Shown here: one piece after another, positions 3,146-64,000 of the stretch
Layout of the letters: the number at the start of each line of letters is the position of its first letter
How positions within the stretch are numbered: position 1 is the stretch's first letter
Source: Gouania willdenowi
Taxonomy: Eukaryota
Direction: 5' to 3'
NCBI RefSeq assembly: GCF_900634775.1
Contig: NC_041064.1
Location: forward strand, 1,444,717-1,508,716
DNA: 64,000 nucleotides
Made by a program: the position numbers and the translations under genes
The notes under the pieces: model-generated
Told to the model about the DNA's origin: nothing
The model's input: the letters and a program-made list of their open reading frames with translations, nothing else
Database searches by the model: none

Positions 3146-3440
3146 TCCCCTAAGAACACCTGAAACCTGGACAATTTGGTGTTATCAAATTAATAGAAAT
3201 GGCATCTGGATGGTGTAAAGCAAACTGTATGATGTCATCAAGAATAGACGCCCTCACAGGAGCAAGAATACATTCTGTTTTTATCATTACGTAACTTGTA
3301 GAGCCATAGGTCTCTGAGGGAGGTTCCATCCTCAGGTCCAACCTCCACATCCCTGTGTTTGAGCAGGAATAATATATCAGTTGTACATCAGAGAGCCTGA
3401 GGCAGAACGCTGCAGAGCTCAGCAGGTTCTCCTCCTCACT

Positions 3441-3613
3441 ATGAGCACACCTGATGAAGCTGAGCTCTGCTATCCACACCTGGGAAACTCCTCGTGCAGG
3501 AGGATCATGCGCTCTCACTCAGTGTCTGTGCTCATTTCCATCATCCTGTCCTCCATCTCTGTGCTCACTGTGACCCTCAACCTGCTGGTCATCATCTCTA
3601 TCTCACACTTCAA
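3441..3613 (+). CDS. TAAR-like GPCR (class III-like), coding exon 1 (N-terminus and TM1)
   Basis: ORF 'MSTPDEAELCYPHLGNSSCRRIMRSHSVSVLISIILSSISVLTVTLNLLVIISISHF', paralogous to the N-terminus of the minus-strand gene at 57804. GT donor at 3614, phase 2. Confidence 0.7.
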
Positions 3614-3750
3614 GTAATGACATGTTCTGTTGTTTAATGAACTGTTGTTACATTGTTGAATGTTTCTGTGTTTGACTCCTGCTGTTATCTGCTTTGATCA
3701 GAACTGTCGTATAATATAATGATCAGTGTGTTGCTCTCTAACTCCTGCAG

Positions 3751-4561
3751 GAAGCTGCACACTCCCACCAACTTCCTCCTCCTCTCTCTCGCTCTGTCAG
3801 ATTTCTCTGTGGGATTTGTTTGGATTTTTCAGATCCTGCTCTTAGACGGCTGCTGGTATTTCAGTGATGGCTGGTGTGTCTTTAATGCATTCTTAACTTC
3901 TATTTCAACTGCTGCTTCAGTAGGAACTGTTGTGCTGATATCAGTTGATCGTTATGTGGCTGTTTGTGATCCAATGCACTATTCTACCAAAGTTACTCCA
4001 AACACAGCAAAGATGAGTGTTGTCTTATGTTGGTTTTGTTCTGTGGTCTGTTACACTACAATGCTCAAAGACAATATTGAACATCCAGGTGGGTTTAATA
4101 CCTGTGTAGGAGAGTGTGTAGTTTATTTACCTCCTGTTGCAGGAATTGTGAGTCTCCTTCTGAAATTCCTCATTCCAGTGAGTATCATAGTGGTCTTGTA
4201 TGTGAGAGTGTTTGCAGTGGCTGTGTCTCAGGCCCGGGCCATGCGCTCTCATGTTACAGTGGTGACACTTCATGGATCACTGAAGGTTAACAGATCAGAG
4301 CTGAAAGCAGCCAGAGCTCTGGGTGTAGTGGTTGTTGTGTCTATAATGTGTTTATCTCCACTTTATATTGCTACACTTTCAGCAGGGTTTGCAGGGTTAA
4401 AGGCATCATCTTATGTTGTTTTTTCATGTGTGTTTTTTATCAACTCCTTACTAAACCCTGTGATCTATGCATTTCTGTATCCTTGGTTCAGGAAATGTGT
4501 GAAATGTATTTTTTCTCTTCAGATTCTGAAGTCTGGTTCCAGTGAGGCCAACATACTGTAA
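3751..4561 (+). CDS. TAAR-like GPCR, coding exon 2 (TM2-TM7, stop at 4559-4561)
   Basis: Acceptor 'ctcctgcag' ends at 3750. Encodes 'KLHTPTNFLLLSLALSDF...SVDRYVAVCDPMHY...NPVIYAFLYPWFRK': DRY motif plus the TAAR fingerprint NPxIYxxFYxWF. No Asp3.32, as in teleost class III TAARs. Confidence 0.75.
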
Positions 4562-7949: not shown

Positions 7950-10100
7950 GTCTCACTTTACAGTAACATTCTGGAATGTGCGTGGCATTCGCTCGCAGGC
8001 TAAAAAGATTAAGATATTTAATTATGTATCGAGATTAAATGCAGATGTCCTCTTTTAATAAACTCACTGACTTAAATCAGAAGAAAAATCTCTGACAGAC
8101 TCAAATTTAGATATATAGATAGTTTTAGATATATAATTCGTGTTACAATTCCAGACAAAGAGGAGTCTTGATTCTTTTCAACAAAAGGTTGCTCTTTAAC
8201 ATAATCAACTCCACCATAGACCCAGAGCGTAGATATATTATTATCAAAGTGGTAATCTATAATAAATGTTTCATAATTCTAAACCTCTATGCCCCCAATA
8301 ATGACGACCCTGAATTCATCCATAAAGTTTTTTCGGAGCTATCAGACCTTTCTGCTGACTCATCATTAATCATCGGAGGTGACTTCAATCTGACACTCAA
8401 CACATCATTAGACAGATCCAGTAAGTGCCCAAATACAAAACCATCCCGATCTGCTAAAGTATTAATGAATTACATGGATGATCATGGAATAGGAGACGTA
8501 TGGAGACTGAACAACTCAACTAAAAAAAGAATACACCTTCTTCTCCCCTGTGCATAAATCCTTCTCCCGAATTGATTTCTTTCTCTCAAATAATTCCATC
8601 GTACATAAGATTTCCTCTCAAAAAATCCTATAATCATTAGCAATCATGCGCCGATATCCCTCACCCTGAAGTGTGACTTTAATTAGAAATTATCCTCTCT
8701 ATGGCGCTTTAATACTTCATTACTTAATAACTGTGAATTTGGAAAAATGATAAGAAAAGAATGGGAGGACTTTCTATGAACAAACGACTCCCCGGAAGTG
8801 TCACCGTCCTTACTCTGGGAAACTGGCAAGGCTGTCATCAGAGGGAAGATTATATCATACATGCAGAAAAAGCATTCGATAGAGTCAACTGGTCATTCCT
8901 CCTAACTGTCCTTGGCAAATTTGGCTTTGGAGAATCATTCATACAATGGATCTCCACCCTCTACACTAAACCTAAGGCCTTAGTAACCACAAACAAAATA
9001 ACATCCCAAAGCTTCTCACTGCAGAGGGGAACCAGACAAGGTTGTCCACTCTCACCTTTGCTTTTTGCAATATTTGTTGAACCTCTCGCAGCAGTTGTAC
9101 GTCAGAACTCTGTTATTAAAGGAATCCACTCATCCATCTCAGAACACAAAATTAATCTTTATGCGGATGATATTTTACTTTATTTAGAAGAACCCCAATC
9201 CTCATTAGAAGAATTATTTAAACTAATAAACAGCTTCTCTAAATTATCAGACTATTCCATTAACTGGTCAAAATCATCAATCCTTCCTTTAACAAAAAAA
9301 TCATGGAACCCAGTAAGCCATAACCCACAATACCCCTCCCCCACAAATACAATTAAATATCTAGGCTTAAATATATCACCAAACCTAAATGAATTAATTA
9401 AACTGAACCTGGATCCACTGTTGGATAAAGTCACAGAAGATCTGCGGAGATGGAACAATCTCCACATCTCACTCCTTGGCAGAATAGCCTCAGTTAAAAT
9501 GAAAATCTTACCTAAAATAAACTATCTGTTCTCTATGATCCACTGAAACCACCAACACAATGGTTCAAAAGATTAGATTCTGCAATTACAAAATTCTATG
9601 CTAGGAATAAAAAACCTAAAATAAGCCTTTCAACCCTTCAAAACAATAAAAGCGAGGGTGGGTTGGAAGCTCCTAATTTCATGCATTATTACCTAGCAAA
9701 CCAAATTCTATATTTAACAGAATGGCTAAAACCAAAAGAATACCACAACACCTGACTAGAAATAGAACAGTTAGACTGTAAACATATTAAACTCTCTGAT
9801 CTCCCTTTTATCTCTGCGACCCTCAAACATCATAACTGCTTTAAAAACCCACTGATTGCCTCCACCCTGACTGCGTGGTGGAAAGCCCTGGACATTACAA
9901 ATGTTCAGTTAAAAACTAGCATCCTGTCTCCAAGCCGGCACATCCCTGACTTTGGAAATAGAAAAACACTGCTCTATCTAAAAACATGGGAAGAGAGCAG
10001 AATTATCCATCTCCAAGACCTCTTTGGAATTGGAAAGATAAAAAATCCTAAACATAAATCAATGGCAAAATCTCCTCATATTTTTTATTATTTCCAGTCA
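7950..10100 (+). mobile_element. L1/Tx1-like LINE, degraded (APE endonuclease plus reverse transcriptase)
   Basis: 'VTFWNVRGIRSQAKKIKIFNYVSRLNADVLF' at 7958. EN ORF 8168-8557 ('LNLYAPNNDDPEFI...IIGGDFNLTLN'). RT ORF 8761-9546 ('RQGCPLSPLLFAIFVEPLA...LYADDILLY'). Stops and frameshifts lie between the pieces. Confidence 0.65.
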
Positions 10101-11929: not shown

Positions 11930-12181
11930 AGATCTGGTCCTGTCAAAGTGGTGGTCTCGTGTCTCCATCAGTGGTCTCTGGTGGTCTCGTGTCTCCATCA
12001 GTGGTCTCTGGTGGTCTAGTGTCTCCTACAGTGGTCTCTGGTGGTCTAGTGTCTCCTACAGTGGTCTCTGGTGGTCTAGTGTCTCCTACAGTGGTCTCTG
12101 GTGGTCTAGTGTCTCCTACAGTGGTCTCTGGTGGTCTAGTGTCCCCTACAGTGGTCTCTGATGGTCTCATGTGTCCTACAG
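11930..12181. repeat. 30-bp minisatellite (~8 units 'gtggtctctggtggtct(a/c)gtgtctcc(t/a)aca')
   Basis: Direct reading. Every unit ends in 'cctacag'. The last unit supplies the exon 2 acceptor. Confidence 0.9.
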
Positions 12182-12401
12182 TGTTCTTTGGTCGTGGTCT
12201 CTGACGTGTCCCAGCTCAGTTCCACGCGGCTACGCAGCGTCCAGAGGCACCAGGTGCCCGTGGTGAGCCCGGAGTACCTGCACCGCTGTTTGGAGAGCGG
12301 ACAGCTGCTCTCTGTGGACGGGTTCAAGTTGGACACGTCCTCGCCTCACTCAGTTGTTCCTGCTCCGCCTCCACCCAGACAGGCTCCGCCCACAGAACAA
12401 G
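12182..12401 (+). CDS. parp4: PARP4 exon 2, rest of BRCT
   Basis: 'CSLVVVSDVSQLSSTRLRSVQRHQVPVVSPEYLHRCLESGQLLSVDGFKLD...' matches the remembered human 'CTHIILDNADVLSQYQLNSIQ' (recalled, not checked). Phase 0 after exon 1. Donor 'caag|gtgaga'. Confidence 0.7.
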
Positions 12402-25869: not shown

Positions 25870-26513
25870 GTAAGGTGGTAATTCTTTTTCTTATTCCATC
25901 ATCTTTAAATCCCAACTCTGCATTTACCTAAAGTAATAATCAGGGTTTTCTGGTTTTTTTCTGTGACAATGACAAGACGACGACAAGAAAAACTTCATAA
26001 TAACATTTGTTCACAATACAACACTGAAATCCACCAGGTGGCAGGGGCGTGGTCAGCCTGACAGAACTCTCAGTTTGGCCACGCCCAGTAACAACTTATA
26101 AGGACACATCAAAATGATCAACAGATGCCTCTGAGGAAGACTGACAGTTGACAGTCGGAACATGTCAGGAGATCAAAAAAGGTTGTCTGAATAAATGAAA
26201 CCTTAAAATATCAACTTCTAGGTCCTCTCACTTTACTGCCCTTTGACCTCCACCGTGATTGGCTCTTAGCGTACACTTACAATACCCTATGAGAATGAAA
26301 TATTCCCATGGTATTTCCTTATCAGAATCAATACTTAATTATAATCTAGGTTCCCACCCTCAGACCATTCTCTTCTTCTTTGTAGTATCCCTGTTCTTCG
26401 TAGTAGTATTTTTTGTTGTAGTCTTCTACGTAGTCTTCTTCTTTTTCTTCTTCATAGTCTTTTTTGTAGTTTTCATCTTCATCATCATCTTCTTCTTTTG
26501 TGTTTGAACACAG

Positions 26514-26600
26514 GTGAAAGAGAAGGAGGCGGCCCGTAGGGAGTACAGGCAGGCGGTGCAGAGTGGCCATGGAGCTTATCTGATGGACCAGGAGGCTGCG
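26514..26600 (+). CDS. parp4: PARP4 exon 16 (VIT)
   Basis: 'VKEKEAARREYRQAVQSGHGAYLMDQEAA'. Donor 'gcg|gtagca'. Confidence 0.65.
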
Positions 26601-26605
26601 GTAGC

Positions 26606-26670
<65 letters not shown>

Positions 26671-26689: not shown

Positions 26690-26857
26690 GATGTGTTCAC
26701 CATCAGCGTGGGGAACCTGCCGCCCGCCGCCTCCGTCCTCATCAAGGTGACCTTTGTGTGTGAGCTGGTGGTCTGTAGGAGCGGCAGCATCCTCTTCTCC
26801 CTACCTGGCTCGGTGGCTCCGTGGCAAGAGACCGCGGCGCTCAACCAGAACACACAG
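26690..26857 (+). CDS. parp4: PARP4 exon 17 (VIT)
   Basis: 'DVFTISVGNLPPAASVLIKVTFVCELVVCRSGSILFSLPGSVAPWQETAALNQNTQ' versus the remembered human '...DVFTVSVGNLP...TVAPWQQDKALNENLQ' (recalled, not checked). Confidence 0.75.
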
Positions 26858-31099: not shown

Positions 31100-31925
31100 C
31101 TCGTCCCGAGGGCTGCTGACGTCTTTAGTTCAGACCATCAGGGAATTATTTGTGTACTTTAGTCAATCTACACATAATAGAATACAGTATACAAATGAAA
31201 TAAAACATCAGGACTTATTCATTTTTGCTCTGAACCCTGTCATCTTGTCAAGTTTGGCAACACGGCGTGCTTGGAGCATGTTGGAGTTAGCACTACCGAG
31301 CTGTCCATGCTAGCTGCTACATGTTTAGCATTGAGGTGCTATCTGCTGCATGTTTAGCATTGAGGTGATAGCTGGTACATGTTTAGCATTGAGGTGCTAG
31401 CTGCTACATGTTTAGCATTGAGGTGCTAGCTGCTACATGTTTAGCATTGAGGTGCTAGCTGCTACATGTTTAGCATTGAGGTGCTATCTGCTACAAGTTT
31501 AGCATTGAGGTGTTAGCTGCTACATGTTTAGCATTGAGGTGCTAGCTGCGCCATATTTAGCATTGAGGTGCTAGCTGCTACATATTTAGCATTGAGGTGC
31601 TAGCTGCTACATATTTAGCATTGAGGTGCTTGCGGAGGCTGCAAAGCCTCGGTCGTTGACAAACTTGTACTTGCTTGATTTGCACACAACGAGGCCTGTG
31701 TTTTCCATCCAATGTTTTTATAAGCCAAAATTAACGCAAACAAAGCTGAGAAGCTTGGTAGTCTTCTGTCTGTGCATCAGTATAATGGGTATACCGGGAA
31801 CTCTTGAAATGAAAAAGGTTCTGCGCTGTTAAGAGTGTTAAAAAAAATTGATTAACAGCATTATATTTTTAGCGCGTTATTTTTTCCTGTAATTAATTAA
31901 TCACAATTAACGTGTTAAAGTGACA
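31100..31925 (-). mobile_element. Repeat element carrying a 33-bp minisatellite (copy A; inverted relative to copy B at 37770-38700)
   Basis: 31300-31640 holds ~10 units of 'gctagctgctacatgtttagcattgaggt'. 31640-31925 is the reverse complement of 37770-38080 ('...ctgtaattaattaat(c/t)a(c/t)aattaacgtgttaaag...'). Confidence 0.6.
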
Positions 31926-37769: not shown

Positions 37770-38700
37770 CTAGGGCTGGGCCTTTAACACGTTAATTATA
37801 ATTAATTAATTACAGAAAATTAACGTACTAAACAAAAAAACGCATTTTTTTCCACTCCAAACAGAGCAGAACTTTTCTTATTGCACGAGTTCCCGGTATA
37901 CCCATAATACTGATGCACAGACCACAACACAAGAAACAGGAGAACCAGAGGAGAAGTCGTTGCTGTGTTTTGTGGGCGTTAATTTTATTTTAAATAAAAA
38001 CACTGGATGGAAAACTAAAGCCCATCTGTGTGAAAATTGTTAGAGAAAGAGTTCGTGAATCAGAGCTCTGTTAGCCTCAGCTAGCACCTCAATGCTAAAC
38101 ATGTTGCAGCTTGCACCTCAATGCTAAACATGTAGCAGCTCGCACCTCAAAGCTAAATATTTAGCCGCTAGCAGCTAGCACCTTAATGTTAAACATGAAG
38201 CAGCCAGCACCTCAATGCTAAAGATGTAGCAACTAGCACCTCAATGCTAAACATGTAGCAACTAGCACCTCAATGCGAAATATATAGCAGCTAGCACCTC
38301 AAAGCTAAATATTTAGCAGCTAGTAGCTCAATGCTAACCACGTTGCAGCTAGCACCTCAATGTTAAACATTTAGCAGCTAGCACCTCAATGCTAACATGT
38401 AGCAGCTAACACCTCAAGGCTAACATGTTGCAGCTAACACCTCAGTGCTAACATGTAGCAGCTAGCACCTCAATGCTAACATGTTGCAGCTAACACCTCA
38501 ATGCTAACATGTTGCAGCTAACACCTCAGTGCTAACATGTAGCAGCTAGTACCTCAATGCTAACATGTAGCAGCTAGCAGGGACAATGGTCCTAGTGGAG
38601 CAGACAGTGTCTCCAATCTACACTGACACTCAGACAGGGTTCAGAACCAATAATAAATCCATGAGTAACAAATGAACAAAGTCAGTGATAAATGATTGTA
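37770..38700 (+). mobile_element. Repeat element carrying the 33-bp minisatellite (copy B, inverted relative to 31100-31925)
   Basis: Starts 'tagggctgggcctttaacacgttaatt'. 38080-38590 holds ~15 units of 'agctagcacctcaatgctaaacatgtagc'. Confidence 0.6.
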
Positions 38701-40199: not shown

Positions 40200-40361
40200 G
40201 ATCCAGAGCGAGTGGAGGAGCTCTTCACAGACATCCTACAGCTGGTTGCAGCCGAGGACGTGGACTTCCTCCCCTACATCAGCTGGATTCCTCCCTTGGG
40301 GGAAGAAGAAGAAGAAGAAGAAGAAGCAGAAATTCATGAAACGAGTGATTCAGACGATGAT
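40200..40361 (+). CDS. parp4: PARP4 exon 29 (contains the coding (GAA)8 poly-Glu tract)
   Basis: 'DPERVEELFTDILQLVAAEDVDFLPYISWIPPLGEEEEEEEEAEIHETSDSDDD' versus the remembered human 'ELIAKEDVDFLPYMSW' (recalled, not checked). Donor 'gat|gtgagt'. Confidence 0.7.
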
Positions 40362-43566: not shown

Positions 43567-44844
43567 AGTCAATTCTCTCCTTTTCTCCATGAACCCAAGA
43601 TGAGGAGTCACAGTCTGTCAATACGTAAACCTTCTGAAGATTTGAGATTGTCAGATCAATGTCGGGAAGATGAGAGTGAGTCTTTGGGCAGCTCTATAAG
43701 GGATCCTGGTGAAGACTACATTGCTCCTCCTCTTCTAATGGCTGAAAGCTTGGCAGTCTTTGAAGCACCAGAGGAGGACGTGGACATGGATTATGATGAT
43801 ACCACTTTACTTTTTCCTACAGAGGATCATAGCAACTCTCACCTTGAAGTATCTAATGCAATCTCCACTACTGAATCTTCCATTCGCCGTACGAGGAGGA
43901 AGCTAAAAGATCTAGGAGTTTTACATTCTGCTGCTCCACCTGCATCTCCACCTCGTCTTCTCCCACAGTCATCGAGCTGTAACATTCTACAGAAATGTTC
44001 GTTTGATAGTTCAGTGACTTCATCTATAGATCAAGATTTTGCTGATCCACCTTCACCCACCTGGGTCTCCATTGGATCAGGCAAAGCTTTTGGAGGCATT
44101 CTGCCTCCACCTTGTCCTCCTCTTGGAGGTGCTCCTCCACCACCTCCACCCACTGGGTTCTCCTTTGGATCTGGCAGAGGTTTTGGAAGCGCTCTGGCTC
44201 CACCTTGTCCTCCTTTTGGAAGTGCTCTGGCTCCACCTTGTTTTCCTTTTGGAGGTGCTCCTCTACCACCTCCACCCACCGGGTTCTCCTTTGGATCTGG
44301 TGAAGGTTTTGGAAGCGCTCTGCCTCTATCTACACCTGGTCTTCTTTTTGGAGCCACTCCTCCACCACCTCCACCTACCGGGTTCTCCTTTGGATCTGGT
44401 GAAGGTTTTGGAAGCGCTCTGCCTCTATCTACACCTGGTCTTCTTTTTGGAGCCACTCCTCCACCACTTCCACCTACCGGGTTCTCCTTTGGATCTGGTG
44501 AAGGTTTTGGAAGCGCTCTGCCTCTATCTACACCTGGTCTTCTTTTTGGAGCCACTCCTCCACCACTTCCACCTACCAGTAAGAGTTTGCCTCAGCGTTT
44601 AAGATCTGTCTCTGAATTCTTCCGTCAAAGCAATGCATACCAACCGATGTCGGTAAATAGTCCATTAACAAAGACAAGGTTGAGCTGCAAACAAGTTGAT
44701 CAAAAAGAAACCGTTGTGGAGCTCCAGGGTTCAGAATCACCTAAAGCAATACAGTTCGACGGTGTTGAGAAGACAGCGTTCATCAGAGCCAGAAGAAATT
44801 GTCTAAAGACGTCCTTTAGAGGTTTGAGGGCCAAACAGGAGTGC
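43567..44844 (+). CDS. parp4: PARP4 large exon 30, Pro/Gly/Phe-rich repeat region (the 3' boundary could instead be 44861)
   Basis: Acceptor 'tttctgtttctttag'. A 426-codon open frame in phase with exon 29. Contains ~3 near-identical 108-nt repeats encoding 'TGFSFGSGEGFGSALPLSTPGLLFGATPPPLPP'. Candidate donors 'tgc|gtgagg' at 44845 and 'at|gtaagc' at 44862. Confidence 0.55.
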
Positions 44845-46295
44845 GTGAGGAACGTCGTTATGTAAGCCTTTCATCCTTCACACCCACCAATAAAACAACA
44901 TGATGTTCATGTTCTCTCCTCTCAGGAGCAGATGTTGCACTTATGATAATAAAACAAACATCTTTAGATGATCAAACAGCAGTGCTCTCACACAACTGTG
45001 AAACTTTCTTTTTAAAAGGTCACCTCCAAACCAGCTCACGTATTATTAAATTAAGGTTTATATGTTAACTTTATGACCTGTCCACTGCAGACAACAACAG
45101 GATGGTTTTAGTGGAAAATAGCAGCATTTAGAATAGAATAGAATATACCTTTATTGATCCTTGAAAGGGAAATTCAGCAGCAACATGACAAAAAGGAGCA
45201 GACAGTAAGAATCTAAAATAAATACCAACATAGATAATAGTGCACGTAGGACAGAAATGATAATGAAACATTTGTTCTAAACAAAACAACAAATAAATCA
45301 GCCGATTGGAATCTTTGTTCTTTGAGTGAATCACTTTTTGTTAAATTATAAAATACATTAAAGGTGTTTATGGGGTATTTTGGTGCAAACTTTTGAATCT
45401 AAACAAAGAGCTAACATGCTAATGCTACTTTTAGAAGAGCTAACCAGTTAGGAATTACATTATTAAAAGTTTGTCTTCACTCAGTTTTTATTCTCTGATA
45501 CGTTCAGAATTTAAAGACTTTGTTTAAAGCAAAATCTTAACCACATAAACTGCTGAAGGTTCAGTTTTGGTGTCGTTCCAGGGACGTTTCTGCTGAGTCA
45601 GCATCAGCCGCCTCCGAGCTCAAATGGACGAAGATTTTCCAAATGCAGAATTCAGTGAGAGCCTTTTTCTTTCTTTTTATTTACGAGTTGTGCACAAAAT
45701 CTTCACTCCTCTTATCACTGCAAAGATGCTTCTGTCAACACATTTCTCACAGTACGCTGTAAACGCTCTATAAACGTTAACGTAAACATTAAACGTCCTG
45801 GATAAGAAGCCTAAATCATATCAACTCTAGCTGGGTTTCCATCACAGATTTTCGCAAAAACAAAAGTTATATTTCTTAATGTCGACAAGTATAAGGAGCT
45901 GGAGATGCGTAAATCCCGTGAAATCTCATCCCGTGAGACTTTGCTGCAGAAAGACGAACGTTCTAAACCTTAGAACACTCGGTATTCCTTTGTTGTTTCA
46001 CGTCTAATGTGGCAGTAATCATTTAATAATAATAAGTATAATGTCTGGGTCTCCTCTTCTGTCCACACGTACCACGTCATGTTTTTTCAGGAGTGATCAT
46101 GTGACCAGGTACATCCTGTCCTGTGACGTACATGGTCACATGACCACTTCTCTCTGAGAAAACATGTTTTATATTTTATCATCTTTTATTAAATGACTTC
46201 TGTGTGAAGCACTTGGATCTACATTTGAATTTGTGAGGTCATGGTGGGATGTGGATGGATGGATCTGCTGATGTGTCATTGTGGTCCTTTTGAAG

Positions 46296-46398
46296 GAGGG
46301 CTTCTGGGACTTCACCTCTGCCCTGGGTCAGCTGATCAACATCAACGTGGAGCTTCTGACCAACGACTTCCTGACGAAGAAAGGAATCTATTCCCTTG
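46296..46398 (+). CDS. parp4: PARP4 exon 31
   Basis: 'EGFWDFTSALGQLININVELLTNDFLTKKGIYSL' versus the remembered human 'EDGFWKLTPELGLILNLNTNGLHSFLKQKGIQSL' (recalled, not checked). Donor 'g|gtgagc'. Confidence 0.7.
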
Positions 46399-47007
46399 GT
46401 GAGCTCCATGTCTGCTCTGTGTTTTAGCCGTTAGCGTGGGAGTGTTTTAGCCGTTAGCGTGGGAGTGGCTAAGCTATCGTTTCAACACGGATTCTTTTCA
46501 AATACTCAACTTATAACTTTTATAGGTGGCTTTTGTTTGTGTTTTCCCAGATTTCAACACAATAAGACAGATATGGTAGAATGAATACACAGTATAACAT
46601 GTAACGTTTCTGGTTTAGTTCACTATTTTAATGCTTCTTGAGATCTTTGTACACAAACATTTTATGTATGTTTTCAGCTGAGCTTGTGATCTATTGAGAC
46701 ACCCAAATGTTGTCAATCTTTACAATATCAAATTCCAAATTCAAATCTCCATCTGTTTTACAGTTTCCAAACAGCATTACTTTAATCTGATCTAAATTAA
46801 CTGACTTCTGTCAAACCAACATTTAAGTTTCTGTAAGTCTTCATTCACCTCTTTTGTTGCTGCTGCAGGTTCTCCCCACAACATAAAATATTTGTGTCAT
46901 CTGTAAAAATGATAAATTACAGAACAATGACAGTATGAATAAAGTTGATTACTTCACAGGCTGCTTCATTCATGGTGTCATCATCTAATCCTGTCCTCTG
47001 TGCTGCA

Positions 47008-48139: not shown

Positions 48140-49445
48140 ATTCCTTTTTAAAGGGGACATATGATGCTAAATCCACTTTTTTAGCCCTTAAATGCATTTT
48201 GTTGTATATTTAGAGTGTTTAGAAGTACAGAAAAAATCAAATTAGTCTCTTCAGATGCTCCGTAGATATCTTTATATTCTGTTTTGCTCATATTTTTCAA
48301 TCTGTTTCGATTTTTCGATTCTCTATTACGTTTTTTGAACAATAACGTCAGCAGAACTGCTAAATTAGTTCATCAACTCCAGGTCCAACACTTCGAGCAA
48401 TCCGCCATTTTTATTTCAGGCTTTTATTTTGTAGTCCAAGCTCCAGGATGCAGAAGTTACGAGAGGATAAGTCAAAATGTTGGGTTGTTGGATGTAGTAA
48501 CCCACACGCTTCATTACACCGTCTCCCAGCATCAGAACCTTTTCAAAGTGTCTGGTTGAGTTTTATTTTTTATAGAAATGTACCCACATCTGTGGATAAG
48601 GTCATTTTTGTGTGTGTGAAGCACTTCAATGATGACTGCTTCATCAACCTCCACCAGTATAAAGAAGGATTTACAGAAAGACTTTGTCTGATTGAGGGTT
48701 CAATTCCTTCTATCTTTGGAGACGATGAACAGAGCACTTCGGTAAGCTGTAAATAACGCTAAAAAGTGATGATAAGACGTCCCTGTCATTGTTTTGTTAG
48801 CATTAGCATTAGCACCGTCTTCATATGTTAGCGCTGTGTGCTCGTTTTAGATCCTTGATGATATGGCCTACGTGATTTAATTTAAGTCTAAAGTTTTCAT
48901 TAGTCATTTCATTTTGACGTTTTTGTCTTTGAAAAGACTGTATTAAAATGCATTTCGTGACGTTAGCTTGGCGCTAGCGTTAGCTCGGTGCTTGTGTTAG
49001 CTCACTTGTTAGGGTTCTGCAGGTTCATCATCTTCATTTTCATCTCGCTCCACTGGGTCAGACTCTGGCTGGAACATGTAAGGCTGGATGGACAAGTCTA
49101 ACGTTGTTGACATTGTGTAAATAACGTGTGAATAAAAAGTTTATGCTCCGCTACATAGCCGTATCTCTACTATCAAACTACAAAAATGGCCGAGCAGGGT
49201 GGAGTTGAACCGAGTGTCACCTGAAGAGGGGGCGGGGTATGGAGTGTCTCATTTGCATTTAAAGAGACAGCACCAAAACGAGTTGCTCTCAGAAGCACAT
49301 CAGAAAAGGGGTAGAAAAGGGGTGGAGCTATAATAATGAGGAATTCAGACCCAAACATTGCAGTAACACTTTATATAGACACAACTGTATGATTTATATG
49401 TAAAAAGGAAGGATTTAAAACCATGATATGTCCCCTTTAAAACAG
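48140..49445 (+). mobile_element. TIR-bounded element carrying a THAP-domain ORF (P-element-like non-autonomous transposon candidate)
   Basis: 48150 'ttaaaggggacatatgatgctaaatcc' versus the reverse complement of 49405-49440, 'ttaaaggggacatatcatggttttaaatcc'. Internal ORF 48448-48756 has C-x2-C...H and a terminal 'SIPSIF', which match the THAP C2CH and AVPTIF pattern. Confidence 0.5.
48448..48738 (+). CDS. THAP zinc-finger domain ORF (transposase- or THAP9-like N-terminus), first exon only; followed by 'gtaagc'
   Basis: 'KCWVVGCSNPHASLHRLPASEPFQSVWLSFIFYRNVPTSVDKVIFVCVKHFNDDCFINLHQYKEGFTERLCLIEGSIPSIF'. Confidence 0.5.
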
Positions 49446-51080: not shown

Positions 51081-51094
51081 AGGGACCCCTACGT

Positions 51095-51420
51095 TTACAG
51101 TCTGTAGTTTAACAGTCTGTGGTTTAACAGTCTGTGGTTTAACAGTCTGTAGTTTAACAGTCTGTAGTTTAACAGTCTGTGGTTTAACAGTCTGTGGTTC
51201 AACAGTCTGTGGTTCAACAGTCTGTAGTTTAACAGTCTGTGGTTTAACAGTCTGTAGTTTAACAGTCTGTGGTTCAACAGTCTGTAGTTTAACAGTCTGT
51301 GGTTCAACAGTCTGTAGTTTAACAGTCTGTGGTTTAACAGTCTGTAGTTTAACAGTCTGTGGTTCAACAGTCTGTAGTTTAACAGTCTGTGGTTTAACAG
51401 TCTGTAGTTTAACAGTCTGT
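51095..51420. repeat. 15-bp minisatellite 'aacagtctgt(a/g)gttt' x ~22
   Basis: Direct reading. About 100 bp upstream of the last parp4 exon. Confidence 0.9.
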
Positions 51421-51516
51421 ATGGTCAGTAGACGTAGTAAAGAGTCAAAGGTTTAAAGGTTGATTAACTGCGTGTGGTTGTTTTATTCTGAAGTGTAAAA
51501 GGCTTTTATTTTGTAG

Positions 51517-51727
51517 CAGGGTGGAGAGGTGGGAGGTGGTGAAGAAGGCAGCAGACTGGGTGCGCTGGGCGGACTGGCAGTATCCCAGTATCTACAGCCG
51601 GCTGGAGTTGGCTCTGAGCTGGGAGGCGTTCACTCGTCAGTTGCTGGGATACGAGGACGTCCCTCCGTTCTCTGAGCTGCGTGGCCTCCACCTGCAGTTG
51701 GTCCCGCCTCCTCTCCTGGTTCACTGA
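51517..51727 (+). CDS. parp4: PARP4 terminal coding exon (MVP-interacting C-terminus); stop at 51725-51727
   Basis: '(S)RVERWEVVKKAADWVRWADWQYPSIYSRLELALSWEAFTRQLLGYEDVPPFSELRGLHLQLVPPPLLVH*' versus the remembered human 'EWVRRTEGQYPSICPRLELGNDWDSATKQLLG' (recalled, not checked). NAGNAG acceptor, so the start is 51517 or 51520. Confidence 0.7.
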
Positions 51728-56715: not shown

Positions 56716-57550
56716 TCAGCGTTTCCGCTCTCTGTGCAGCAGGTTAATATCACTGGAGCCAGGCTTCATTATCTGAAAGGTACCAATGAGCTTGATGGAC
56801 TTTCTGAACCAGGGGTAAAACAGTGCATAGATCAGAGGGTTGAAAAAGGAGTTCAGGTAAAACAGACACATCACAAAAGCCAAAGTGGAAGCATTTAAAA
56901 CAGAGTCTGCTCCAGTCATAGAAACACAAAAATATGGACAGGTGCACAGGAGAAAAACCACAATGACAACGCTGATTGTGCTGAAAGCTTTAAGCTCAGA
57001 TTTCTTTGTGGTGAATTGGGACTCGTGTGCAGGTCTCACAGATGCAACATGAGAACGCATAGAATGAGCATGAGACAAAGCCACCACAAACACCCTCAGA
57101 GACATCAGTACGATGACAATAACAGGTCCAATAAATGACAGGATAACATCTACAATGCTACCAACATAACTGACAACTACTACACACTCCCCAAGGCACG
57201 TGCTGTACTGGCCTGGTTGTTCCAGGTTATCTTTAAAAAGGTAAAATTGATAGAAAACAGAAATGATCCAGCACAGAGAAACACATACTTTCACTCTGTT
57301 TGCTGTGACTTTAGTGGGATACTGCAGAGGTTCACACACTGCCACGTAGCGATCCACTGAGAGCAGAACCATTGTTCCTATTGAAGCTGAGGTGAAGATA
57401 TATTCCAAATAATAATACACAAAACACAACAGCGCCCCAAACAACCAACAACCATCAATAAGTGATATTTGGAAGATCATAAGGATGCCCACGAAGAAAT
57501 CTGAGATAGCCAGAGAGAGGAGGAGGAGGTTGGTGGGAGTGTGGAGCTTC
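56716..57550 (-). CDS. TAAR-like GPCR gene 2, coding exon 2 (TM2-TM7, stop at 56716-56718)
   Basis: 'KLHTPTNLLLLSLAISDFFVG...SVDRYVAVCEPLQYPTKVT...NPLIYALFYPWFRKSIK'. The minus-strand acceptor is 'cacttttcag'. Confidence 0.75.
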
Positions 57551-57634
57551 CTGAAAAGTGAGAGATAAAGAAAAGTCAGATCAGATTTTATGAAAACAGA
57601 ACCTCCTAAACACTGTGAAAGAATATTTAAATAC

Positions 57635-57804
57635 CTGAAGTGTGAGATGGAGATGATGACCAGCAGGTTGAGGTTCACAGTCATCACAGAGATGGAGGAG
57701 AGGGTGATATAAATCAGCACAGAGACTGAGTGAGGACGCACGATCCTCCTGCACGATGAGTTAAGATTTGAAAAGCAGAACTCAGCGTCGTCAACGGTTG
57801 CCAT
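57635..57804 (-). CDS. TAAR-like GPCR gene 2, coding exon 1 (start codon at 57802-57804 on -)
   Basis: 'MATVDDAEFCFSNLNSSCRRIVRPHSVSVLIYITLSSISVMTVNLNLLVIISISHF'. Minus-strand donor 'cag|gtatttaaat'. The 84-nt intron (57551-57634) is stop-free and in frame. Confidence 0.7.
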
Positions 57805-58497
57805 CTTTGACCCCTCTGCCTCTCACTCTAATGTTGCACTGATTTATAAAACCTTTTCTCTTATTGCTCCGCCCTCCTTTGATCTGGTAACTTCCTTTTT
57901 GAATGAATATTTAGATGATTTGACCTCTGGGTTGTTTTTGCTTAATCTGTTTGAATTTGTTTGAAAAGGCCATCCACATTTAAAACGCAACTTTAAGACA
58001 AATTCCAATTCCAGAGAAAAGTGACCTGAAATGCTCTGCTCAACACACGACTTTTAGGGGAAAAAAATTATAGAAGTTCAACAAATGTAAAAATGTTTGC
58101 AGAACTACGTCTGTTAGTAGTTTAATGTTGTAGCAAGACTGCTTGTTTTTGTGGCTTTTTTTGGGCAAAACAAGCCATTCCACTTTATTGAGCTCTGAGA
58201 ACTGCATCCTGTGTCTCCTCCGCAGGAGTTTTGTGCAGACTGCCAGTCCCTCCCTGACCTACATTTCTCCACAGATCATCTCTAACCTGTTAACTACACA
58301 TGTGGCGGTGTGTAGTAGAGCATCATCTGGTCAACCAAATTCTCAACCGCGATTAAGTGAGAAAGTCAGCCAGAACCATCTGAAACCCTGGTCTATGGAT
58401 CACTCTAAACTTAAAAGAATGTAAAGCCAGATACTACAGATTGATCTGCTAATTTGTGTCGTTCAAATGGTGGAGCAGTGCATGGTCCAAACAGTGG

Positions 58498-61449: not shown

Positions 61450-64000
61450 ATAGGCTTTTTTAAAAAGGAAGGTCTTTCATCCTTTTTTAAAAGCATCCAC
61501 CGTGTGGAGACCTAAGGTGGTCAGGAAGGGCGTTCCACAGACGAGGAGCGGCAGCTTCGAAAGCCCTGTCCCCCATTGTCATGAGCCGCGTCCTGGGCGT
61601 GAGCAGACGGTGCTGTTGGCCTGACCGGGTCCTGGTTGAGGTGTGTGGTGTGAGGAGGTCAGTGAGGTAGGAGGGGGCATCACCGTGCAGACAGTGGTGG
61701 GTGTGTAGGAGGACCTTGTACTCTATGCGGGCGGAGATGGGAAGCCAGTGGAGAGTGCGGAGTATGGGGGTGATATGGTCGTATTTCCGCACCCTCATCA
61801 GGACCCTGGCAGCGCTGTTTTGGACATACTGGAGTTTTTGGATGTTCCTGCCAGGGATCCCGATGAGGAGTGCGTTACAGTAGTCCAACCTGGAGGAGAC
61901 AAACGCATGGACGAGCCTCTCTGCAGCCGAAAGGGAGAGGAAAGGACGGAGTTTTGAGATGTTACGGAGGTGAAAGAAAGAGGTTTTGCATATGTGGGTG
62001 ACATGGTTGTCGAAGGAGAGGTGGGGGTCAAACTTCACCCCAAGGTTGGTAAAGGTGGGAGAGAGGGGAATGCTGTGGCCAAAAATTGAAACTGAGGCGA
62101 TGGGGGAGGCACGGAGTTGTTGAGGGGTACCAATTTGGATGGCTTCTGTTTTTGAGCTATTCAGCTGCAAGAAGTTTTGTCTCATCCATGCGTTTATCTC
62201 CTCCAGGCAGGAGCTGAGACGAGTGAGGGTGGCAGAGGGGGACCCAGAGGGGGAGACCTTGAGTTAGAGTTGTGTGTCGTCAGCATAGCAGTGGAAGTTA
62301 ATTCCGTGCCTGCCGACGACACACCCGAGGGGAAGCATGTAAATAGTGAAGAGGGTGGGGCCGAGCACGGAGCCCTGGGGGACCCCACAGGTGACAGTTT
62401 TGGGGCGGGATTTAGCATTCTTCAGGACCACGTACTCGGTCCTGTCAGTGAGGTAGGAACGGAACCAGTGAAGGACGTGTCAGAAAGGCCAATGTGCTGG
62501 AGACGGTGGAGAAGGATGTTGTGGTCGATGGTGTCAAAGGCAGCAGAGAGGTCGAGAAGAATGAGGGATGTGGAACCGGAGTCAGAGGTCATCAGCAGGT
62601 CATTTGTGACTCTGATGAGTGCTGTTTCTGTACTGTGGGAGGGGCGGAAACCAGATTGGAATTTTTCATGTAGGCTGTTAGTTTTGAGGTGATTGTGGAG
62701 CTGAGAGGAGACTACTTTTTCCAGGATTTTGGATATGAATGGGAGGTTGGAGATGGGACGGTAATTTGATAAGTTTTCAGGGTCAAGAGAAGGTTTTTTC
62801 AGGAGTGGTTTGATTAAAGCTGTGTAACGAACAGGACGTTCGTTACGTGCACTTGCACTTTACACACACAGCACTTTTATATTCACTAGCACTTTTATGC
62901 ACACTGCACTTGAAACACGCTAATTTGCACAAATAAAAGTATTGCACACGTTGGTCAGTTTTAAATTGTTTATTGAAAAGATTTGTTGTTGTTGCCCGTG
63001 GGTCCGGTCGGGATGCGTCGCCTCCGGTAATGGCGGCCGGTCCTGCGGAGGCAACAGGATATTTGGGATTGTGCAATACTATGTGCCATGTTTTAAGAAT
63101 TAGTTGATGCGTTAGGTGTTGCGTGCATGCGGTGAATGTTTGGGTGGGTGAATGTGTATCTGTGTGGGTGCAAGCTACTTACGTTTCCTCTTGTGTCCAG
63201 GGTGGCGGTGTCTGGCCAAAAGATTCCCCAGGGAAACAGACGCCGCTGAAAAGCATTCCAGGCTGGACCAAGGGGCGAAAAAGCTTGGGGGTGGCTGAAT
63301 AGGTTTTAACCGGTTTTAGGATGTAGTTTTGATTCAGTTAGGTGATTTTGGTTGGGAGTTTATTGTAGTGGGGTTTTTCTTTGTTTATATTATGGCTATG
63401 GGTTTTATTGGAGGATTTGAATGTGGTTTTAGAAGCTAATGTTATTTTCTACACCTGCTTAGCTTTATGGTTTTATCCAGTTTAGTGGGAGGGTATTTAA
63501 GGCGCCTGATGCCCTCACTCTAGGTTCTGCTGCTGGAGGAGACCTGTCAGTCCTTTGATGCACCTTTGTTTTGCACTGTGCACTTTATTGTATTTTCGCA
63601 TCAAAAAATAAATGCCCAAAAAAAAAGGAAGTGGACCACTAAGACGGCCTCCCTGGTCTTTTTTCTCATTACTCACCGCCTCCTGCTCATGCCGCCCTGT
63701 CACAAGCTGTTTTGAGGGAAAGTGGGACGTTGCCAGTTTTCAGGGAGAGATTGATGATTTTGGTTATGAGGGGGCTAATGACTTGGTTGTGACTTTTGAG
63801 CAGAGGAGAGGGAATGGGATCCAGGGAGCAGGTGGATGATTTTGAGGTGCAGACAATCTTCTCGACCTCCTGCTGCGTTGTGGGTATGAAGTGTGTGAGA
63901 TGTTGTTTAACGGGTGTGGTCGGGATGTCATGGACGGAATTTTGAAGAGGTGCGAGAGATGAGCGGATATTGTCAATTTTGGATGTAAAACTATCAAGGA
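61450..64000 (-). mobile_element. L2/CR1-like LINE, 3' part (RT C-terminal region); runs off the window edge
   Basis: ORF 61487-62185 (-) reads '...LDYCNALLIGIPGRNIQKLQYVQNSAARVLMRVRKYDHITPILRTLHWLPISARIEYKVLLHTHHCL', the characteristic L2-clade tail. Upstream minus-strand frames carry RT-like segments with frameshifts. Confidence 0.6.

Follow-up and report, generated by a model that had tools for sequence, protein, structure and literature searches.

The parp4 locus and its largest exon

We analysed a window of 64,000 nucleotides (nt) from the genome of Gouania willdenowi, a clingfish (Gobiesocidae, Blenniiformes, Ovalentaria); all coordinates refer to this whole stretch, which is teleost genomic DNA with 41% GC and no N. 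The window contains the gene parp4, and the largest exon of this gene carries the subject of this study, an array of in-frame tandem repeats rich in proline and in phenylalanine-glycine (FG) motifs. The parts of the gene that frame the array are the following.

11785-51727, forward strand: parp4 gene, from the ATG of the BRCT exon to the stop codon after '...LVPPPLLVH'; a tblastn search with XP_028291259.1 gives colinear exons at 95-100% identity
43567-44861, forward strand: largest parp4 exon, 1295 nt, coding for amino acids 1246-1677, the predicted disordered linker; translation 100% identical to residues 1246-1677 of XP_028291259.1
45581-51724, forward strand: downstream exons with the C-terminal MVP-interaction domain (MVP-ID), amino acids ~1678-1849; mapped at 46296-46400 and 51515-51724; exon '...ELKWTKIFQMQNS'

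An earlier interpretation made from the DNA letters alone (the sequence-only reading) had placed the repeat in a large exon of parp4, and the domain and protein comparisons bear this out. Pfam finds BRCT (2-89), PARP (404-562), VIT (618-728) and VWA (871-1026), in this order, in the window exons and in the RefSeq protein. When compared with 1.84 billion representative proteins, the exon translation gave exactly one match, with 100% identity along its full length of 432 residues: 'protein mono-ADP-ribosyltransferase PARP4 isoform X2 [Gouania willdenowi]' (XP_028291259.1; P0121 in our set, 1849 amino acids), with isoforms X1 and X3 in the same cluster. The exon is preceded by a polypyrimidine tract and an AG at 43565-66 and followed by the donor GTAAGC at 44862; the mapped exon before it stops at 40361 in phase 0, the following one supplies the G of a split Met codon, and these phases match the protein. 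The three RefSeq isoforms retrieved all contain the exon unchanged and differ only by single residues elsewhere, so that splicing-out of the repeated segment, which would have spoken against the sequence-only reading, is not seen at the annotation level (array kept in 3/3). For the C-terminal domain, neither PF26156 (PARP4_MVP-ID) nor PF26166 (WGR-like_PARP4) was reported for the protein in the Pfam scan, and we assign the MVP-ID because of the precomputed annotation of homologues (PF26156 is carried by 29/29 of those matched with the C-terminal 267 amino acids) and because of similarity to the human C-terminus.

The corresponding part of PARP4 is known from other vertebrates. In the human gene the largest exon is exon 30, and it codes for more than 300 amino acids of disordered protein. 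The largest exon is present in all expressed sequence tags and varies strongly in sequence and length among vertebrates; in primates and bats, positive selection on PARP4 is confined to it, and it also contains absolutely conserved residues (Daugherty et al. 2014, PMC4038475). The disordered segment lies between the ITIH-like region and the MVP-interacting domain at 1570-1724 (Suskiewicz et al. 2023, PMC10450202), and the PARP4 C-terminus is anchored on the inner vault wall, the rest being mobile in the lumen owing to 'long, disordered regions' (Lodwick et al. 2025, PMC12280208); all three studies describe the human linker as disordered. The Gouania exon has the same character: one large exon separates the ITIH-like part from the MVP-ID, with little sequence conservation and with a length that differs between species. 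Pfam found no domain in its translation, and in a single-sequence AlphaFold2 prediction the confidence score pLDDT stayed below 50 over exon residues 1-396, the array included, with two confident helices only at the very end.

A coding minisatellite with a period of 99 nt

A clear coding tandem repeat lies in this exon, at the place and in the coding frame proposed earlier: Tandem Repeats Finder (TRF) reports 44234-44577 with a period of 99 nt, 3.5 copies, 96% matches and a score of 618. The period corresponds to 33 amino acids and replaces the ~108 nt first proposed. The anchor GGGTTCTCCTTTGGATC recurs at 44156, 44282, 44381 and 44480, with a diverged copy at 44063, giving spacings of 93, 126, 99 and 99 nt, and older, overlapping periodicities of 93, 126 and 33 nt are found at 44047-44326 (TRF). 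The whole array spans 44050-44577, that is 528 nt coding for 176 amino acids (1407-1582 of XP_028291259.1), and divides into the following units.

44050-44142, forward strand: unit A, 93 nt, 31 amino acids, PSPTWVSIGSGKAFGGILPPPCPPLGGAPPP; oldest and most degenerate copy (TRF 44047-44227, period 93)
44143-44268, forward strand: unit B, 126 nt, 42 amino acids, PPPTGFSFGSGRGFGSALAPPCPPFGSALAPPCFPFGGAPLP; contains an internal 33-nt duplication (TRF 44181-44260)
44269-44367, forward strand: unit C, 99 nt, 33 amino acids, PPPTGFSFGSGEGFGSALPLSTPGLLFGATPPP
44368-44466, forward strand: unit D, 99 nt; peptide identical to that of unit C
44467-44565, forward strand: unit E, 99 nt; residue 1 changed from Pro to Leu, giving PPPLPP
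44566-44577, forward strand: partial sixth unit, 12 nt, CTTCCACCTACC, coding for LPPT; 3' edge of the array

The three near-identical units described in the sequence-only reading thus exist, but with boundaries at 44269-44565; upstream of them lie two diverged units and not one, and a feature start at 44150 had left out unit A. The peptide quoted there has the right content, but as a unit it amounts to one 33-residue unit plus 4 overlapping residues; the peptide common to units C, D and E is (P/L)PPTGFSFGSGEGFGSALPLSTPGLLFGATPPP.

Units C, D and E are nearly identical at the nucleotide level (C/D 98/99, D/E 98/99, C/E 97/99), and the sole difference between C and D is synonymous. The stretch 44370-44478 equals 44469-44577, a perfect 99-periodic run of 109 nt, and units D and E become identical once the register is set to begin at ACC-GGG. 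Units A and B, in contrast, are 76-85% identical to units C-E (unit A is 76-83% identical to the other units), a pattern that upholds the earlier proposal of a recent expansion, by recent duplication or homogenisation. All unit lengths and indels (93, 126, 99, 33 and 6) are multiples of three and the 432-codon frame stays open; with head-to-tail units of at least 10 nt, in frame within a coding exon, the array is a coding minisatellite, and it may also be length-polymorphic (a VNTR), as the sequence-only reading had proposed.

The sequence-only reading had also described long open reading frames (ORFs) in the other five frames. The minus-strand ORF that it cited, 44031-44555, is present, but only two alternative frames are open through the whole array, 44030-44599 on the plus strand and 44034-44591 on the minus strand, and the others meet a stop in each unit. 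We rejected the possibility that these frames are coding: they are open only through the repeat, their products would be Gly/Pro or Leu strings close to homopolymers, and neither splice sites nor annotation speak for them.

The same exon in other fishes

No orthologue aligned to the flanks of the Gouania exon, and orthologous exons were therefore taken from genomic loci and from C-terminal gene models. They comprise 338-436 codons and lie at the same position, with unrelated sequence. The six other percomorph exons examined are listed below by species, locus or protein model, and content.

Lycodopsis, L001:26124-27137: three polyproline tracts, no array
Simochromis, L002:35344-36651: 75-nt unit, 2.9 copies ('PPPPPSFMKRASDDVPxLSF')
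Poecilia formosa, L004:58972-60150: 33-nt unit, about 9-13 copies ('GAxGAPPPPPP'); upstream of the exon the locus is interrupted by 21 kb of N
Pampus argenteus, L005:26286-27494: 21-nt unit, 33 copies ('SAAPPPP')
Scomber, P0124, a separate C-terminal gene model: five copies of 'FLGSSHPPPPPPPP'
Dicentrarchus, P0130: about three copies of 'PPPPPSIGAPIVGQSFSYDPSS'

The Gouania array was found in none of these six exons, all of them from distant species within or outside Ovalentaria. No other gobiesocid was found in the protein collections, and the best C-terminal identity outside Gouania was 68%. Since no available orthologue has the array, we regard it as lineage-specific; how recent it is we judge from the identity within the array.

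Five of the six exons contain different, independent tandem arrays. Like that of Gouania, the arrays of Poecilia, Pampus, Simochromis, Scomber and Dicentrarchus lie in the same exon, in frame, and are proline-rich and lineage-specific, but they are built of other sequences with units of 21, 33 or 75 nt, or of about 15 or 24 amino acids. Their copies are 65-85% matched, and these arrays are therefore older. None of their repeat units contains the FxFG motif; the Simochromis exon does contain one FSFG, outside the repeat. Tandem arrays that keep the frame have thus expanded repeatedly and independently in this exon, which is a hot spot for them.

In Lycodopsis (L001), Poecilia formosa (L004) and Nematolebias (L006) PARP4 is split into two gene models, one running from BRCT to VWA and the other carrying PARP4_MVP-ID, with the break at or just before the large repeat-rich exon. 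This hypervariable exon apparently defeats homology-guided gene prediction.

Motif content and a probable ancestral module

The array consists of 27% Pro, 20% Gly and 11% each of Ser, Phe and Leu, with only 5 charged residues. It contains 14 FG (mean spacing 11.7 residues), among them five FxFG (four FSFG and one FPFG) and eight PhixFG, as well as GFG and LLFG; its polyproline tracts are PPPPPP (two), PPPP (one) and PPPLPP (two), the others being PPP. Most orthologues have only 1-4 FG, and in several other teleost linkers the count is 3-4, where about 1 is expected.

Single copies of FxFG occur in other PARP4 proteins, as TGFSFGS (Logan P0133), VGFSFGA (P0127), QGFTFGH (Nematolebias), VFSFGA (Garra), GFCFGA (Denticeps), SFSFGI (Simochromis) and PFSFGL (Characodon). 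Altogether the motif is present in 8 of the 21 non-Gouania PARP4 linkers, an unevenly sampled set, where 0.9 would be expected and none of 1000 shuffles gave more than 6; it is absent from the human, Lycodopsis, Pampus and Poecilia linkers. A second pattern, FG[SAG]x0-2[AVL]P (hereafter FGSxAP), occurs 8 times in the same 21 linkers as compared to 0.5 expected, and one of these occurrences is the human FGSAAP (the human sequence was checked against PDB chain 9BW6): human 'SFGSAAPP' is comparable to Gouania 'GFGSALAPP'. Since FxFG and FGSxAP recur in other PARP4 linkers, the array appears to multiply ancestral short linear motifs together with polyproline.

A candidate for the unexpanded state is found in the killifish Nematolebias, where BLASTP aligns one Gouania unit with a single module, 'PPKPQGFTFGHSGSAGPCFGSAPVPFGSAP...PPPP', from 'PPKPQGFTFG' to 'PPPP'. 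Unit B aligns with it from end to end (BLASTP against L006; 42% identity over 53 columns, E = 0.009). On the simplest reading of these alignments, an ancestral single module (polyPro - GFxFG - FGSAxP - polyPro) was tandemly duplicated in the clingfish lineage. An origin of the unit from a transposable element was considered and rejected in view of the same alignment with single-copy orthologous coding sequence.

Origin and age of the array

Taking these observations together, we consider it likely that the array is a lineage-specific coding minisatellite that arose in the largest parp4 exon by tandem duplication of a linker module. This module of about 31-42 amino acids (polyproline - (T)GFSFGSG - GFGSAL(A)P - ...FG - polyproline), which is single-copy in other fishes, would have been duplicated by replication slippage or unequal exchange, leaving two older copies that have diverged (A and B) and three (C-E) that arose or were homogenised very recently. 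The array sits in the predicted disordered linker between the catalytic/ITIH-like body and the C-terminal vault anchor, where its expansion may lengthen the vault tether and, through additional copies of FxFG, PhixFG, FG and polyPro/PPLP, may change valency toward linker ligands. Such an expansion would fit the fast-evolving, length-variable role of the exon as a 'specificity interface' of PARP4.

At an assumed rate of ~3e-9 substitutions/site/year, the divergence of units C-E, d of about 0.01 or one difference per 99 nt, would have taken roughly 1-2 million years to build up. The absence of any difference between D and E over 109 nt means that these copies are younger still, or that gene conversion is ongoing.

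Several points weigh against this account. The recent date is taken from within-array identity, which gene conversion (concerted evolution) could also keep high, and the inclusion of the exon in transcripts is taken from RefSeq models, which are themselves predictions. Single-sequence AlphaFold2 scores many proteins low, so that the low pLDDT makes weak evidence of disorder. As for the motifs, the FGSxAP pattern was defined post hoc, and the set of 21 'linkers' includes a few whole proteins, for which the boundary regular expression failed. Finally, comparison of the older units gives pN/pS ratios (nonsynonymous to synonymous) of 1.1-2.9, based on very few sites (Sd 2-4, Nd 11-17), and therefore no hint that purifying selection acts on the entire unit; relaxed or positive selection, of the kind usual in this exon, would give such ratios, and so equally would neutrality, so that a purely neutral, tolerated expansion also agrees with these ratios.

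Alternative explanations

The strongest competitor takes up this last point, and holds that the array is a neutral passenger, a slippage product tolerated in an unconstrained disordered linker, with neither the copy number nor the motifs having a specific function. Ratios at or above 1 are what such a passenger would show; the extreme variability of the exon in sequence and length, including the unrelated arrays of other fishes, points the same way, and the parp4 introns in the window are full of minisatellites, which suggests a slippage-prone locus. Set against this are the recurrence of FxFG and FGSxAP across teleosts, and in the human protein, far above the shuffled expectation, the preservation of the frame by every indel, and the positive selection together with absolutely conserved residues reported for the exon (PMC4038475). 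On balance a purely neutral array seems to us possible but clearly the less probable outcome.

A second explanation shifts the emphasis from FG to proline: the polyPro/PPLP tracts would recruit profilin or SH3, WW or EVH1 domains, in the manner of a formin FH1 region, and the FG motifs would be mere spacers. The resemblance is real in that the Gouania array also consists of repeated polyPro/PPLP tracts with Gly/Ser/Ala-rich spacers in a disordered segment, and in that polyproline is the most widespread feature of percomorph linkers (tracts of at least 4 Pro: Lycodopsis 3, Poecilia 7, Pampus 16, Scomber 7); the two PPPPPP, one PPPP and two PPPLPP of Gouania belong to this trend, and 'GAPPPPPP(T/G)G' is common to Gouania and the Poecilia repeat unit. 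However, formin FH1 regions have several tracts of at least 5 Pro beside an FH2 domain, whereas the Gouania array has only 2-3 tracts of at least 4 Pro and Pfam detects neither FH2 nor any other actin-related domain. In the two newest units PPPPPP is replaced by PPPLPP, and long uninterrupted tracts are therefore not being maintained. The part of the human linker examined (amino acids 1314-1575) contains no run of at least 4 Pro, and so polyproline is not conserved across vertebrates, while an FG motif is. We consider an array of proline-recognition ligands unlikely.

The sequence-only reading had stressed a likeness to nucleoporin FG repeats, and at the level of motifs this is correct, FSFG being an FxFG motif. 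With 14 FG in 176 amino acids at a spacing of 11.7, five FxFG, only 5 charged residues and low pLDDT, the array has the motif make-up of an FG domain, and its GFSFGS also forms the core of DSGFSFGSK, the FxFG nucleoporin peptide in standard use (PMC3852005). It could then be asked whether the segment is a true FG-nucleoporin-like domain, forming a cohesive, phase-separating meshwork or binding nuclear transport receptors. Homology gives no support to this: the one match among the 1.84 billion representatives was the protein itself, a phmmer search of the array against PDB sequences found no match, and a word-indexed protein search with the whole exon also found none, although that search listed entries of at most 1348 amino acids and missed even the identical RefSeq protein. 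No similarity to any nucleoporin was seen, nor a domain for anchoring in the nuclear pore complex; the array belongs to PARP4. With 176 amino acids in about five units it is short, it is very proline-rich, and most orthologues have few FG. FG domains generally contain less proline than the 27% of the Gouania array. The C-terminus of the host protein is anchored in the vault lumen (PMC12280208) and not at the pore. A genuine nucleoporin-like domain is improbable in our view.

We regard as highly improbable an artefact of assembly or annotation, in which copies were mis-assembled or over-polished or the segment is non-coding, because, although near-perfect tandem copies are a classic site of assembly errors and one haplotype was examined, the 528-nt array is far shorter than long reads, its units carry phase-informative differences, the 432-codon ORF has canonical splice sites and is used in all the isoforms retrieved, and exons of similar size occupy the same position in other fishes.

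Relation to known systems

The closest known system is the hypervariable exon of mammalian PARP4 itself (human exon 30, PMC4038475; linker, PMC10450202), with which the Gouania segment shares gene, exon, position, predicted disorder and variability. The presence of such a segment in a vault PARP, which the sequence-only reading had called unexpected, is therefore only half a surprise: this part of PARP4 is the one already known to be hypervariable and disordered, and FG, FxFG and polyproline recur in other fish linkers and FGSAAP in human. The array is a further case of this described exon, and the modestly new lead lies in the recurring FxFG/FGSxAP motifs and their amplification. Work on mammals has concerned point substitutions under positive selection and not tandem expansion; what sets Gouania apart is the 99-nt array with its FxFG motifs and near-identical copies.

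Among systems outside PARP4, FxFG nucleoporins share with the array GFSFGS, dense and regular FG, low charge and predicted disorder, but they differ in that the array has no homology to them and its host is tethered in the vault. A second class of ligands appears equally close by analogy. The peptide DSGFSFGSK binds the NTF2-like domain of G3BP1 with a dissociation constant of about 115 uM, whereas FG and GLFG peptides do not bind (PMC3852005; PMC11962251 Table 1); it has been crystallised with this domain, and it is the standard FxFG peptide used with NTF2 and G3BP1 (PMC3852005). The G3BP NTF2-like domain is also the target of PhixFG/FGDF ligands from USP10, Caprin-1, the alphavirus nsP3 hypervariable domain, where FGDF is duplicated, and SARS-CoV-2 N (PMC11962251, PMC4450067). 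Like these ligands, the Gouania array has tandem motifs in a disordered hypervariable region, and its FSFG and LLFG fit PhixFG; both PARP4 and the G3BP ligands are tied to ADP-ribosylation and to host-virus conflict. On the other side, the acidic/aromatic continuation (FGDF) is absent from the array and PARP4 is largely inside vaults. We know of no interaction between PARP4 and G3BP. The PhixFG ligands of G3BP would be as close an analogue as the FxFG nucleoporins, and an attractive one given the proposed host-virus role of the exon.

Extending this analogy, the PARP4 linker might carry an ancient FxFG/PhixFG motif, together with the FGSxAP shared with human, that docks into an NTF2-like or karyopherin-type pocket (G3BP1/2 being the most attractive candidates, with NTF2, NXT1 or importin-beta as others), and the four- to five-fold amplification in Gouania might have turned it into a multivalent ligand. 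We put this forward as a speculation whose chances are slim.

Other features of the window

The parp4 locus is generally rich in tandem repeats. A 29-nt minisatellite, TGCTAGCTGCTACATGTTTAGCATTGAGG, occurs twice in opposite orientations, at 31308-31630 on the plus strand (11 copies) and at 38078-38579 on the minus strand (17 copies), in two parp4 introns about 6.5 kb apart on either side of the VWA-coding exons; this pair is possibly a transposable-element remnant with internal repeats, or an inverted duplication. Further intronic minisatellites are found at the following positions.

11949-12192: 30-nt unit, 8.1 copies (94%)
18703-18908: 21-nt unit, 9.8 copies
51093-51421: 15/30-nt unit, 22/11 copies (92-94%), just upstream of the final coding exon

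A perfect (AC)31 microsatellite at 26607-26668 lies in the short intron between the VIT exons 26511-26600 and 26690-26857, and appears as an in-frame His/Thr run in the raw ORF. Within a late parp4 intron, an ORF at 48364-48753 on the plus strand encodes a THAP domain (E = 7e-9) and is probably a domesticated or decaying P-element/THAP-type transposon.

Outside the gene, parp4 is flanked by two genes for rhodopsin-family G-protein-coupled receptors (Pfam 7tm_1, E about 1e-39), at 3363-4558 on the plus strand and at 56719-57822 on the minus strand, with a short first exon apparent in both; from their sequences ('KLHTPTNxLLLSLAxSDF') we presume a resemblance to trace-amine-associated receptors. 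Two ORFs resembling reverse transcriptases, at 8129-9543 on the plus strand (RVT_1, E = 2e-25 for 8737-9543) and at 61490-62859 on the minus strand (no Pfam match, LINE-like translation), appear to be fragments of long interspersed nuclear elements (LINEs).

Implications for PARP4 evolution

The Gouania array shows in concrete form how the hypervariable PARP4 linker changes its length, namely by in-frame minisatellite expansion, and such expansion appears to have occurred independently in at least six percomorph lineages. With FxFG, FGSxAP and polyproline there are now first candidates for linear motifs in this region, on which positive selection centres in mammals; provided that the motif has a function, the allele of the clingfish would be a natural 'valency series' for binding to the linker. 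Should the docking speculation hold, PARP4 and the vault would be coupled to the stress-granule and antiviral G3BP hub or to transport receptors, and viral PhixFG mimics, among them alphavirus nsP3 and coronavirus N, would be the competitors behind the rapid evolution of the linker.

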